In this document: positions 45,072-55,606 of the stretch, in pieces
How the letters are laid out: every line of letters begins with the position of its first letter
Numbering within the stretch: the stretch's first letter is position 1
From: an uncultured virus (IMG/VR IMGVR_UViG_2627853734_000003)
Lineage: Duplodnaviria; Heunggongvirae; Uroviricota; Caudoviricetes
Direction: 5' to 3' (one strand)
DNA length: 64,000 nt
IMG/VR virus record: IMGVR_UViG_2627853734_000003
Coordinates: 1 to 64,000 of that record
The notes under the pieces: model-generated
What the model was told of the DNA's origin: nothing
Seen by the model: only the letters and a program-made list of their open reading frames with translations
The model's database searches: none
Program-made: the position numbers and the translations under genes

Positions 45072-45548
45072 TTAACGATTATTAAAATTTGCAACCAATT
45101 TAATTTTACTTAATTCCATAATAAACTCATCTGGATACATAATTCTAATTGATCCTTTATTGTTATTTTTTAATATCCCATTTTCGTCTTTTAACGCATG
45201 AATATGAGCATCTTTACTAATTATATAATTAGCATTTCCTTCAATAGCACATTCAAAAAACATATTATCCATTGGATCTTTACATTTCATAAATTTTTGG
45301 GTTGGTTCTACTTTTTCAGTCCTTAGTAAGAACCTTGCAATCATCTTAAAAATTGGAATTAAATCTGAACTATTAATCTCATATCTTTTTATAGATTGTT
45401 CAATAATTCTAAGCAACTCTTCTTGCATTGCATTACTCATTATTAATTTGAATTCACCATTATGTTCTTTTCTTAATAGAAGTTGACAATCTTTATTATT
45501 TTCAAAAAAGGCACCGATAAAAATATTAGTATCAACGACTACTTTCAT
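45072..45548 (-). CDS. PIN-domain putative toxin
   Basis: VVVDTN...CKDPMDNMFFECA.....YIISKD motif. Confidence 0.88.
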   Translation of the reverse strand: MKVVVDTNIFIGAFFENNKDCQLLLRKEHNGEFKLIMSNAMQEELLRIIEQSIKRYEINSSDLIPIFKMIARFLLRTEKVEPTQKFMKCKDPMDNMFFECAIEGNANYIISKDAHIHALKDENGILKNNNKGSIRIMYPDEFIMELSKIKLVANFNNR

Positions 45549-45793
45549 CTATTTTTTCTCACATCACTTAACATCTCTTTAGAAATACTACTTACTTCTT
45601 CTTTAGTTAAGCCTTTTCTTTTTATTGCTCTTTGAAAAATGTCAGCTATTACATCACATTCACATTCATTATCCATATAATTATATTGATTATAGGCTTG
45701 TAATTGAATTACATTTTCCATTGTTTTACCCACCCCTATCTTGCTTATCATTCGCCTTTTCTTATTAAAACTTGTCCACTTCTTTATCTCCAT
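45545..45793 (-). CDS. Putative antitoxin for the PIN toxin
   Basis: ATGA overlap with the PIN gene; shared MEIKKWTS leader; second start at 45721. Confidence 0.65.
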   Translation of the reverse strand: MEIKKWTSFNKKRRMISKIGVGKTMENVIQLQAYNQYNYMDNECECDVIADIFQRAIKRKGLTKEEVSSISKEMLSDVRKNR

Positions 45794-46037
45794 TTTACCA
45801 TCTCACCCCTCTATTTACAATATTTTAGTAAAATTTTCTCTATATTTTTCTTTATATTGTGCATAATATTAATAAAATTGGGAATAATATATTATTTATA
45901 TATTCATATTTTACCATAAATTGGATATAAGTCATAATGTTATTTTTACGTATAACAAAAATAACTACTTTTGATTAAGTAGTTATTTATTTAAGCCCAT
46001 ATTAAATACACAAGATATCTCAACAATAATATTAAAC

Positions 46038-47039
46038 TTATTTTTGAATTGTTTTACAAATAACACCACGTATAATATTACTTCCATCCTTTGCTTTTAC
46101 ACCATCATTTATAATTAAATAATATACTTCATTATGATTTAAAGATTGTCTAGGAACAATTCCTATTTTATTAGGCTTTAACATACTAAAATCTAGTAAA
46201 ATCTGTTCACTAGTTTCTTCTGAAATTAATTTTATGTTTTCATTGTTAATAGTATCTGGATTAATACTTTTTGAAAATGTCACTTTAATCTCTTGTTTAA
46301 TATGTATAGTATTTAAATCTTTAAAATTCCTATACTCTTTTTTACTTTTATCTATATAATCTTTAGTTTTTGTAACATTTAAAGCTTTTTCTTGTGCTTC
46401 TTTGTACTTTTTCTTTTTCTTGGAAATATATTCTCTGACACCTTGAACTTCTTTTTCTTTTGATATCAATTTTTCGTTTACTCTATTTATATCGTCTTTT
46501 ATAAAATCTAAATCCATATCCCATATAATTTTAGACTTCCTATCACAATTGCTTAATTTCTCATCAATATAATCTAGATTTGATTTTTCTATATTAAAAC
46601 TTTCATCTAAAATAACTACATTATTGACATATTCCTTGACTCCACTTCTATTTTCCGTGTCTTTAAATTGTTCATTCTCTTGTTGCAGTTTTTTCATTTC
46701 ATCTTTTAATTCATCAATTTTAGCATATAATTTTTTTCTTTCTTTCTCCAGAGACTTCTCTCTACTTTTAAGCTCATTCTTTTCATCTTCTGATATAAAT
46801 AATAAACTATCATAAGTATAATCACTATAACTAGTTCCTTTATGACCATGTGTACTTGGGTAACTTCTTGTATGAGGTCTAACATAAGTCCCATCTTTCC
46901 TGTAATATCCTCTTACACTAACGTTTCCACTACGTCTTCCTCTTCCACCAGATCCACGTGATTTCGCAAATGCAACTTGAGAAAATAATAAACTAAATAC
47001 TAATACTAGAATGACCGTAACCTTACTCTTCTTATTCAT
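46038..47039 (-). CDS. Secreted protein with a coiled coil and a C-terminal Ig-like (Big_5-type) domain
   Basis: Signal peptide ending AFA; VRGYYRKDGTYVRPH motif; V.FSK.I...Y.L.I..GVK..DG. Confidence 0.7.
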   Translation of the reverse strand: MNKKSKVTVILVLVFSLLFSQVAFAKSRGSGGRGRRSGNVSVRGYYRKDGTYVRPHTRSYPSTHGHKGTSYSDYTYDSLLFISEDEKNELKSREKSLEKERKKLYAKIDELKDEMKKLQQENEQFKDTENRSGVKEYVNNVVILDESFNIEKSNLDYIDEKLSNCDRKSKIIWDMDLDFIKDDINRVNEKLISKEKEVQGVREYISKKKKKYKEAQEKALNVTKTKDYIDKSKKEYRNFKDLNTIHIKQEIKVTFSKSINPDTINNENIKLISEETSEQILLDFSMLKPNKIGIVPRQSLNHNEVYYLIINDGVKAKDGSNIIRGVICKTIQK

Positions 47040-47247
47040 TTTATTCCTCCTTTAGTAATTTTTCCATTTAACATTATACAATATTTTGTTTCATTATGAA
47101 ACATTATCCATATAAGCCTATTAAATTTATTCCATAAACCACTAATAATCATTCATATGAAATTCACATCTATGAATATATTGTAAATAAGTCCTTAATA
47201 TGCTATTATTAACTTACATAATATTACCTATGAGGAGGCATAAAACT

Positions 47248-48210
47248 ATGCTTAAGAAAAAACTCGTATTATCATTATTAACTGCTGGTTGCTTATCATT
47301 TATACCAACTATAGCAAATGCTCAAGTAAATGGTTATCTAATAAAAGATAAATCTACTAATGTAGTTTATAAATATAATCTAAATGATTTAGAAGATTCT
47401 ATGTTAGGTGATAAAGCATTCTTAAATAAATTCCAAAATAAATGTAAAAATGATGGACTATTCGCATTCTGTGATGATAGCAAGAAAGTAGTTGCTTATG
47501 CAGATGTAATAGAAGATTTCTTACAAAATAAAGATAACTTCAATTTAGAAAAATATATAAAGAATGACAAAACACCTAGTATTAAAGTAGATAAAATTGA
47601 ACAGGTTAAAGTAGATGAAAAAACTGATAACAAACCTGTTGTTAAACCAGATACTAAACCTGTTCAAAAGGAAGATACTAAGCAGGATAATAATAAAATT
47701 GATATACAAAAACTAAAACAACAGATTAAAACTCCTGAAGACTTAGAAAAATTCTTGAATGAAGATAGTCGTTTTAATCAATTGAAGACTCCTGTTGGAA
47801 CTTTTAACTTTACTACTAAAGTAGATATTAATAAAGATAAAGATGATTGTTCTATGGCGTACGATTTTAGTGTTATACAAAAATGGACTAAAGATTTAAG
47901 TCCTGTTGATTTAGTATTTAGTAGAAAATACACCAAAGAACAAATGTCAGAACTATCTTCTTTGATGAAGATTCATCAAAAGAAAATAGCTGATTTATCA
48001 TTATCCTTATTCCCTAATCAAAAAATAAAAGGTTACTTTTTAAGTGAAGATAAAAACGAGATAAAAAGATTCAAACATTACAAATCTAACATATTAATCC
48101 ACTTCTGGTGTAACTACAATAATGAAATTGCACATATGTATGGCGAAAGTAAAATAACAAGATTCCATTTTTATGTTCATACTGACAGTTTTTGGTTCAA
48201 TGAAAACTAG
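47248..48210 (+). CDS. Secreted/surface hypothetical protein
   Basis: Signal peptide ending ANA; GAGGAGG RBS; KP-rich linker; opposite strand to the tail genes. Confidence 0.75.
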   Translation: MLKKKLVLSLLTAGCLSFIPTIANAQVNGYLIKDKSTNVVYKYNLNDLEDSMLGDKAFLNKFQNKCKNDGLFAFCDDSKKVVAYADVIEDFLQNKDNFNLEKYIKNDKTPSIKVDKIEQVKVDEKTDNKPVVKPDTKPVQKEDTKQDNNKIDIQKLKQQIKTPEDLEKFLNEDSRFNQLKTPVGTFNFTTKVDINKDKDDCSMAYDFSVIQKWTKDLSPVDLVFSRKYTKEQMSELSSLMKIHQKKIADLSLSLFPNQKIKGYFLSEDKNEIKRFKHYKSNILIHFWCNYNNEIAHMYGESKITRFHFYVHTDSFWFNEN

Positions 48211-54531: not shown

Positions 54532-54628
54532 TTTACCATCTCACTCCCCTATTTACAATATTTTAGTAAAATTTTATCCATAATATTCTTTATATTATCC
54601 ATAATTTTATCAAATTTGGTTAAAATAT

Positions 54629-54729
54629 ATTATTTACATAATTATATTTTACCATAAATTGGTTATAAGTAGTAATGATATTATTTTATATAACAAAAAC
54701 TCCTAATATCATTAAATACTAGGAGTTTT
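54629..54729. repeat. 101-bp direct repeat, copy 2
   Basis: Identical to 53666-53766. Confidence 0.92.
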
Positions 54730-54763
54730 CATATAGTATATATCATTTTAAATAACCTTCTTA

Positions 54764-55321
54764 TTAAATAAGTTTTCGATACATAGGATGAGGTATATCA
54801 ATATTAATACTTTTATCATCATTAATATACTTCATAAAGTTCTTATCGAAAGGTAAAAACTTATTTCTAATATAAAAATTAATAGCTTTTTCTACTGAAT
54901 TTAATATAAGAAACTTTGATGCAGAGTATTCCGTAACATAGTCCATATTTGAAATGACATTTAACATCAAGAAATCACTTGTATTATATTTATTATTATA
55001 CTTAACACTATGATAATGCACATCTACTGCAAACATATATATCTCCACTGATGGCATACCTCTTATTCCAAAATTTTGTATCGTATTATTACTATTTAAG
55101 TTATATAATAATGAAGAATTTCTTAGAGTATAAAAACCTACTATTTTATTTTTGTTAGTATCTATAGCTAAATGTGTAACTCCAAATCCCAGTTTATCGA
55201 ATTCTTCTGCTTTTTGGAATAAAAAATTATTAATACCTTCATGTCCACAGTCAAAATCATTGAATAATTTTTTAGTTTCAGTGTTTATATAGTCAAACTC
55301 TATAGTTTCAGCTAAAGTCAT
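54764..55321 (-). CDS. GNAT-like acetyltransferase, TA-toxin type
   Basis: FDCG...INNFL, IVGFYTL, PSVEI..FAVD and AINFY.RN.F motifs. Confidence 0.8.
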   Translation of the reverse strand: MTLAETIEFDYINTETKKLFNDFDCGHEGINNFLFQKAEEFDKLGFGVTHLAIDTNKNKIVGFYTLRNSSLLYNLNSNNTIQNFGIRGMPSVEIYMFAVDVHYHSVKYNNKYNTSDFLMLNVISNMDYVTEYSASKFLILNSVEKAINFYIRNKFLPFDKNFMKYINDDKSINIDIPHPMYRKLI

Positions 55322-55336
55322 CTTTAAATCTCCAAA

Positions 55337-55606
55337 CTAATGTCTTTGTCTTTTTCTTCTAACTACATTTTTCATAATTTCTCTTATATTCATTTTTTCT
55401 TCTTCTGTTACTAAAGTTTTATCTGCTTCTTTCATAAATTCATCAAATTTTTCTGCTTTAATAATAGGCATACATTCCATTGGTGTAGATAATACTGCCA
55501 TATCTATCCCCTCTCTCTTTTCTATATATCTGATTATTTGATTTATATGCACCTTTTTTAACTTGTACACTTTCTTATTGGAGCTTACCCAACGTTGTAT
55601 TTTCAT
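55337..55606 (-). CDS. Putative antitoxin for the second GNAT
   Basis: MKIQRWVS leader; second start at 55501. Confidence 0.65.
   Translation of the reverse strand: MKIQRWVSSNKKVYKLKKVHINQIIRYIEKREGIDMAVLSTPMECMPIIKAEKFDEFMKEADKTLVTEEEKMNIREIMKNVVRRKRQRH

Follow-up and report, generated by a model that had tools for sequence, protein, structure and literature searches.

A shared front end of promoter-like sites, leader and two in-frame start signals on candidate toxin–antitoxin cassettes of clostridial phages

Why do small genes that precede quite different toxin genes begin with the same peptide, and why do they carry two start signals in the same frame? The question is raised by a stretch of 64,000 nucleotides (nt) from an uncultured virus of the Caudoviricetes (positions 1 to 64,000 of the IMG/VR record IMGVR_UViG_2627853734_000003, hereafter "the window"), which contains four two-gene cassettes, c1 to c4, each with a putative antitoxin gene followed by a putative toxin gene. 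The original prediction was that a portable basic leader sits on toxin-specific neutralising peptides and gives long and short isoforms. From sequence comparison we favour the following explanation, to which we give about an even chance: a portable front end, made of expression signals and a leader, has been placed on type II toxin–antitoxin (TA) pairs, and yields a long antitoxin with a basic tail and probably a short one.

All four antitoxin genes are on the minus strand, and they start where they had been said to start. The long form from c1 (45545..45793, 82 amino acids) begins with MEIKKWTSFNK at 45793, that from c2 (53317..53556, 79 amino acids) with MKIQRWTSSK at 53556, that from c3 (54265..54531, 88 amino acids) with MNIKKWISSK at 54531 and that from c4 (55337..55606, 89 amino acids) with MKIQRWVSSNK at 55606. 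The positions of the second in-frame ATG also check: it lies 24 codons further on in c1 (45721), 38 in c2 (53442), 39 in c3 (54414) and 35 in c4 (55501). We refer to the two start codons as ATG1 and ATG2, to the segment between them as the leader, and to what follows ATG2 as the antitoxin body.

A 25-nt pattern of the leader occurs four times in the window and in none of 100 shuffles. Pattern scans found the leader in Clostridium muellerianum (L003), in phage c-st, in several IMG/VR contigs and in two nearest-genus genomes; once the chance matches were removed, there remained 21 distinct upstream regions, with proteins of 15 unique sequences and antitoxin bodies of 12 kinds. The genes found behind the leader code for PIN, Doc and GNAT or GNAT-like proteins (four kinds of the latter), for three kinds of PemK/MazF proteins above the Pfam cut-off (2.1e-9, 1.6e-5 and 4.3e-6), for a 132-amino-acid protein below the PemK/MazF cut-off (2.2e-3) and for a protein of 216–232 amino acids whose family is unclear. 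The same leader is thus found on 12 different bodies, which bears out its portability.

To rate each Shine–Dalgarno (SD) sequence, the 17 nt that precede the ATG were paired with an anti-SD tail and the energy of the duplex was calculated. In c1 to c4 a strong SD does precede both starts, as predicted (−9.8 to −11.4 kcal/mol for SD1, −9.4 to −12.7 kcal/mol for SD2). Across the 15 unique proteins, SD1 is at about −10 kcal/mol in 14, the exception (−3.1) adjoining an insertion sequence (IS), and SD2 ranges from −9 to −13 kcal/mol, which is as strong as SD1 or stronger. By comparison, the 289 internal in-frame ATGs of the window's open reading frames (ORFs) of at least 150 amino acids have a median of −1.7 kcal/mol and only 0.7% of them reach −9, while the median is −7.8 kcal/mol when the first ATG of each of these 41 ORFs is scored instead. 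Judged against the internal ATGs, both ATG1 and ATG2 look like real gene starts. All 15 proteins have the two ATGs in frame, each with an SD at working distance.

The similarity between cassettes is not limited to the leader. Upstream DNA can be aligned from about 190 nt before ATG1 down to SD2, and this conserved front end of about 250 bp contains two promoter-like elements (P1 and P2), SD1, the leader and SD2; as aligned, the leader is only the part of this longer conserved stretch that reaches into the gene. P1 is an extended −10-like box located 116–138 nt upstream of ATG1 in 19 of the 21 distinct upstream regions, the two others adjoining an IS. In the window it is found on the minus strand at 45906..45918 in c1 (124 nt upstream of ATG1), 53681..53693 in c2 (136 nt) and 54644..54656 in c3. 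P2 consists of TTGAAA or TTGTAA, 17 nt, and a TG-extended TAATAT or TAAAAT, with this exact spacing in 19 of the 21 regions. It lies over SD1 and ATG1: the spacer carries SD1, and the −10 ends with the A and the T of ATG1. The minus-strand sites are at 45792..45820 in c1 (TTGTAA, TAAAAT), 53555..53583 in c2 (TTGAAA, TAATAT), 54530..54558 in c3 and 55605..55633 in c4. Their match to the consensus equals that of the best promoters of the window, and the three P2 sites within 52700–55900 were the only promoter-like sites flagged with an extended −10 in a promoter scan of that segment. Because the −10 overlaps ATG1, a transcript started at P2 would be devoid of ATG1 while a transcript started at P1 would include it, if these consensus matches are promoters.

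At the other end, each cassette is closed by the same hairpin, a stem followed by a run of T, which looks like an intrinsic terminator (minus strand, 45044..45073 in c1, with no mismatch, 52856..52885 in c2, 53735..53764 in c3 and 54698..54727 in c4). The hairpin pattern matches the window at these four places and shuffled sequences nowhere, and two of the four were also detected in a terminator scan. The modules that we call QR-type have, between P1 and P2, a second P1 box in inverted orientation, which points toward P1 from about 90 nt away (plus strand, 53590..53602 in c2 and 55641..55653 in the c4 module); in c1 and c3, whose modules are KK-type, this copy is degenerate. This inverted box could be a convergent antisense promoter or one arm of a paired operator. 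The shared terminator and the P1 repeat also match sequence that directly follows the C3 exoenzyme genes in type C and D phages (AP008983.1, 130500–138500, our L082; X59040.1; X59039.1). In c-st, a PemK-type cassette with the leader, CST145/CST144, adjoins the C3 gene, with ISCbt4 between them, and the annotation of CST145 starts at an internal TTG (63 amino acids).

Since ATG1 is embedded in a promoter-like site, one may ask whether the leader is translated at all. It could be that ATG2 alone is used and that the leader is an untranslated promoter, operator or 5' untranslated region, conserved as nucleotides, whose open frame is incidental. The overlap of ATG1 with a −10 as good as any in the window would fit this proposal, as would the small synonymous excess in the first eight codons. 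However, over 457 leader codons there is no stop in frame 0, against 68 in frame +1 and 45 in frame +2. The distance from ATG1 to ATG2 takes 11 distinct values (69, 72, 75, 78, 81, 93, 96, 99, 105, 114 and 117 nt), all multiples of three, which is very unlikely if the DNA is not translated (the naive chance, about (1/3)^11, is overstated by the kinship of the sequences). When all frames from +30 to +160 are searched for the ATG with the strongest SD, the one found is in frame with ATG1 in each of the 15 unique proteins. The frame is therefore preserved despite the differing length of the leader, as claimed, and the stops or frameshifts in homologues that would have contradicted the original prediction are absent: 15 of 15 leaders are open and in frame.

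The peptide itself also seems to be under constraint. It opens with M-x-I-x-[KR]-W and is 23–39 residues long; its first eight residues are the conserved part, I3 and W6 being invariant in 15 DNA variants, and the remainder varies, with a middle of low complexity and an overall composition of 21–42% K+R and 0–15% D+E. A profile search with five GNAT-type antitoxins against 1.84 billion representatives gave 43 hits, 41 of which were examined. The motif M-x-[IVL]-x-[KR]-[WY] is present near the N-terminus of 16 of these 41, and in four of the 16, which are more distant relatives, Y replaces W. With this exchange the residue stays aromatic although the DNA changes, which indicates a constraint on the peptide and not on the DNA alone. 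The claim that the peptide is what is conserved is supported to this extent, and has to be qualified in that the leader is the end of a longer conserved DNA block.

An RNA function of the leader finds no echo either. Its predicted folding shows nothing beyond shuffled sequences (z from −2.6 to +1.3, mostly near 0), SD2 is mostly unpaired, and no leader matched Rfam at E ≤ 1. The unstructured RNA, in which SD2 is not masked, argues against reading the leader as a riboswitch or attenuator. Together with the strong SD1, these results make the exclusive use of ATG2 highly improbable in our opinion.

The opposite proposal is that ATG1 alone is used: the leader would be the N-terminal part of a modular antitoxin, and SD2 and ATG2 would be either a fossil of the joining event or a conserved internal methionine. 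SD1 is strong in 14 of the 15 proteins, which agrees with it. Public records contain the long forms, and each of the four short forms is absent from them, which is uninformative on the use of ATG2, and CST141 of c-st, a leader-bearing gene with no other gene within 60 nt, is annotated as the long form (89 amino acids). Among the 33 profile hits in which the body methionine could be located, 28 have at least 15 residues before it and two have fewer than 10. However, the remaining three (P0033, P0039 and P0042) start exactly at this methionine. SD2 is at least as strong as SD1 in front of 12 unrelated bodies, a strength that is so rare before internal ATGs, and a near-consensus P2 would yield transcripts without ATG1. 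Besides, the homology between leaders stops at SD2 in every cassette, and each unrelated body opens with a methionine there. From this boundary, from the strength of SD2 relative to internal ATGs and from the three relatives that start at this position, we conclude that ATG2 is probably a present or recent start codon, and we regard the exclusive use of ATG1 as rather unlikely.

How did one front end come to precede so many bodies? Unrelated AT-rich DNA is about 55–65% identical. Against this baseline, the loci L034 and L040 have PemK-type bodies that are 99% identical behind leaders that are 78% identical, i.e. one body with two leaders; conversely, c3 and L040 have leaders that are 90% identical and unrelated bodies (61%). 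In an IMG/VR contig that is 98% identical to the window (loci L063, L064, L077, L065), the interval from the tape-measure gene to the distal-tail gene contains a tandem row of five cassettes. The window keeps the last three of the five, and the absent segment of about 1.6 kb corresponds to two PemK cassettes and is bounded by two front ends. The front end of c4 is a hybrid of two cassette types, located at the deletion junction, with the crossover at the −35 of P2, so that the loss of two cassettes is explained, at the level of the alignment, by homologous crossover in the front end. Integron-type gene cassettes are defined by attC sites, an integrase and attI; the hairpin shared by the present cassettes resembles an intrinsic terminator. 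An IS element (55736..57109, plus strand, DDE transposase 55851–57053) is inserted in the P1 region of this hybrid, the first module of the array, and leaves an orphan P1 box behind it (57119..57131, minus strand), separated from c4; c-st has another IS, immediately before the −10 of one of its cassettes. Judged from the aligned sequences, the leader/body mosaics and the deletion show that the front-end block recombines.

It may be asked whether recombination is the whole story. In such a case, the front end would recombine upstream of any antitoxin SD, the frame would be kept to avoid out-of-frame run-through, and the peptide would be a by-product without function. The end of leader homology at SD2 in every cassette, the evidence for active recombination and the variable, low-complexity middle of the leader are all in line with this. 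But a conserved N-terminal motif with a W/Y exchange across species, and a steady basic composition, are not required for such a by-product, to which we give only a slight chance.

Our favoured explanation assumes that the cassettes are TA pairs. In each, the small gene comes first, the two genes are −4, 9, 2 and 15 nt apart in c1 to c4, respectively, and these two ORFs alone lie between the promoter-like block and the terminator. The c1 toxin (45072..45548, minus strand) overlaps the antitoxin stop by 4 nt and is a PIN-domain protein (PIN_3, E 3.3e-16; TIGR00305, E 1.6e-14). The c2 toxin (52888..53307, minus) belongs to the Fic/Doc family (Fic, E 2e-16; TIGR01550 DOC_P1, E 1.2e-14); a contig with an identical antitoxin (L042, 1508 onward) has a Doc toxin of 156 instead of 139 amino acids, with an internal insertion. 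The c3 toxin (53765..54262, minus) is a GNAT acetyltransferase (Acetyltransf_7, E 2.5e-7). The c4 toxin (54764..55321, minus) has no Pfam match and is considered GNAT-like by its homology to the c3 toxin only (BLASTP, E 1e-11, 28% identity). We take c1 to c4 as putative type II pairs, in which the antitoxin is predicted to neutralise the toxin. Repression of its own promoter by the antitoxin or the complex, another trait of type II systems, may apply as well; the P1 box occurs in repeated and inverted copies.

The antitoxins are less easily classified. The four of the window have no Pfam match at E ≤ 0.01 and no PADLOC match; eight relatives compared with Pfam at E ≤ 0.05 gave two weak matches, both to non-antitoxin families, and none that reached the curated cut-off; there was no NCBIfam match among 12 antitoxins. 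The absence of an RHH, AbrB or HTH domain, noted from the start, thus agrees with the profile searches, which gave no match to Phd-YefM or DUF1778 families either. An antitoxin profile retrieved nothing below E 0.6 from PDB sequences, a protein atlas comparison gave hypothetical proteins only (best score 0.81), and a word-based protein search with the c3 antitoxin returned the window's own protein alone. The bodies are 41–62 amino acids long and neutral to acidic. They had been said to differ according to toxin family, which is true across PIN, Doc and GNAT; those of c3 and c4 are related to one another. An AlphaFold2 model of the c3 antitoxin, based on a five-sequence alignment, has a mean pLDDT of 53.8, with residues 1–44 below 50 and two low-confidence helices in the body, at 52–63 and 69–87; at this confidence, it predicts no fold for the leader peptide, which is probably disordered.

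Taken together, we propose that each cassette would be a type II TA pair equipped with a front end (about 250 bp) and a terminator that all cassettes have in common. P2 would be a near-consensus sigma-A-type promoter over SD1 and ATG1. Transcripts from P1 would give the long antitoxin with its basic tail, while SD2 and ATG2, plus any transcript from P2, would give the short antitoxin alone; we infer that both starts and both promoters are used. The basic tail would be a shared nucleic-acid-binding or regulatory arm that acts on the shared promoter block. We favour this role since the bodies have no recognisable DNA-binding domain and all stand behind one promoter: they are too small and too diverse to have such a domain in common, so that the promoter block is the most economical target for the tail. 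Homologous recombination in the shared front ends would shuffle, delete and spread cassettes among phages and prophages of C. botulinum group III.

Another possibility is that the leader is a common tag for a single trans-acting factor, a protease, a chaperone or a phage protein, which would stabilise or destabilise many antitoxins together. The distribution of conservation in the leader (eight constant residues with the invariant I3 and W6, then a variable remainder), the predicted disorder of the tail and the presence of several tagged cassettes in one prophage are what such a tag would lead one to expect. On the other hand, no candidate partner gene was identified, the cassettes contain no third gene, and a tag leaves the sharing of the promoter block unexplained. 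The degron and trigger-sensor roles of the original prediction belong here, by analogy with chaperone-addiction tags; they, and the coupling device that it also named, are conjectural, and we find the common tag very doubtful. A broader version, which we hold to be unlikely, is that the M-x-I-x-[KR]-W tail serves as an address label read either by one phage or host factor (a repressor-like partner, a protease or a chaperone) or by the promoter block, the choice between P1 and P2 setting the ratio of labelled to unlabelled antitoxin. If this were true, one signal would arm or disarm a battery of PIN, Doc, GNAT and MazF toxins together, on toxin-converting phages.

Several observations weigh against the regulatory front end that we favour. 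Since the sequences share ancestry and recombine, they are less independent than the frame statistics imply. In the first ten codons of the 15 DNA variants, the differences by codon position number 15, 18 and 23, although this is a weak test, and there are 11 synonymous and 34 non-synonymous codon changes, for an expected 17% of synonymous ones. If P2 is the main promoter, then ATG1 is not transcribed from it. The public annotation, mentioned above, lists long forms only. RNA libraries gave a match for one contig, in the GNAT toxin gene only, and three metatranscriptomes gave none. The low pLDDT of the leader and of the whole model means that no fold backs DNA binding. Last, the extensions of some relatives are basic with R instead of K, but others have an acidic extension or none, so the basic tail is not universal; and since the search profile contained the leader, its hits are biased toward leader-bearing proteins.

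The leader, as spelled here, appears to have a narrow range: its carriers are phages of C. botulinum group III, related IMG/VR contigs and C. muellerianum. The two nearest genomes, G001 and G174, have two and eight leader matches, respectively, the eight being on one contig. The six-frame profile search of 401 family genomes matched seven of the 390 that were scored. As for the candidates that were rejected, the exact pattern hit three loci in genome contigs, of which one is real (C. muellerianum). With two mismatches allowed, 62 of the 401 family genomes matched, and the only real-looking loci are in G001, G174 and G135 (C. muellerianum), all the other 29 extracted loci being chance matches. 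None of 47 metagenome loci is real. A looser pattern gave 32 viral loci, four of which (L050, L054, L055 and L059) are chance matches and were excluded from all counts. Among the distant relatives, P0033 combines a GNAT-type antitoxin body with a C-terminal segment resembling the end of the window's Doc antitoxin, and P0009 and P0036 each hold two antitoxin bodies; these fusions and tandem repeats suggest further shuffling of modules among small proteins.

The window has a G+C content of about 25%, and its closest phage records belong to type C and D phages of C. botulinum; the public records that contain these exact small proteins label them "hypothetical protein [Clostridium botulinum]". The cassettes are found among the tail genes of a siphovirus-like prophage. 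These tail genes, likewise on the minus strand, code for a tape-measure protein (57510–62447, named from its size and position), a distal-tail protein (51990–52784) and a large tail protein (48207–51977). Cassettes c2, c3 and c4 sit with the IS element between the tape-measure and distal-tail genes (52800–57500), which is an unusual location for accessory cargo, and c1 is placed apart from them, at 45044–45918. The tape-measure region consists of two long minus-strand ORFs about 390 nt apart, 57510–62447 and 62839–63999, one of which exits the window. Just downstream of the PIN cassette c1, with a 148-amino-acid ORF in between, is a gene for a 319-amino-acid protein (43332–44291, minus strand) without a Pfam match, which gives a match to PDC-M36A, a candidate defence family of PADLOC (E 1e-21). 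The ORFs beside the PIN cassette are flanked by a hairpin repeat of another type, with copies about 80% alike at 44482–44511 and 45957–45986, so that the accessory neighbours of this cassette may have shared boundary elements of their own.

Which known systems does this arrangement resemble? Modular type II antitoxins have a DNA-binding part at the N-terminus and a part specific to the toxin at the C-terminus, and these are shuffled among families. The cassettes described here have in common with them a shared N-terminal part on unrelated neutralising parts, the order antitoxin then toxin, and short gaps or overlaps. On the contrary, the shared part is here a basic, probably disordered leader of 23–39 amino acids rather than a folded RHH, AbrB, HTH or Phd domain, and it travels with the promoter block as one DNA module that is followed by a second in-frame start. 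Long and short forms produced from in-frame tandem starts are known for IF2, ClpB and CheA. Two in-frame starts, each with its own SD, are also present here, but the upstream one is inside a promoter-like site, which would make the choice of isoform dependent on the promoter. Phage morons are autonomous units of promoter, gene and terminator inserted between phage genes. Like them, each cassette has its own promoter-like block and terminator, and the array lies between tape-measure and distal-tail genes; unlike them, the units have one front end in common, which extends into the coding sequence and within which recombination swaps their cargo.

The chaperone addiction (ChAD) extensions are short, portable, C-terminal extensions of antitoxins of different families, accompanied by a gene for a SecB-like chaperone (PMC5105189, PMC6377645). 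The extension described here is also short, portable and found on antitoxins of different families, but it is N-terminal and belongs to two-gene cassettes, which sets these apart from toxin–antitoxin–chaperone (TAC) systems. Panacea (DUF4065) is described as a hyperpromiscuous antitoxin domain with many toxin partners, phages included (PMC8832971). There too, one antitoxin element is associated with many toxin families, but the shared element is the folded neutralising domain, whereas here a short leader is shared and the bodies differ; no Pfam match to DUF4065 was found in the antitoxins of the window or their relatives. In the part of the literature that was accessible, which does not cover subscription journals, work on dual- or alternative-start antitoxins and on TA systems of group III phages does not describe this arrangement, and none of the modular antitoxins, ChAD, Panacea, dual-start proteins and morons fits it fully.

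In the usual description, a type II antitoxin is a single protein with a single start, regulated through a DNA-binding domain of its own. Here, at least four toxin families stand behind one promoter–leader front end, with two in-frame start signals for each antitoxin. If both forms are made, this would be a simple way to keep a regulatory antitoxin with a tail apart from one that only neutralises, and to place many toxins under common control. The cassettes also offer a concrete case of phages that swap and lose defence or addiction cargo through recombination in a shared front end.

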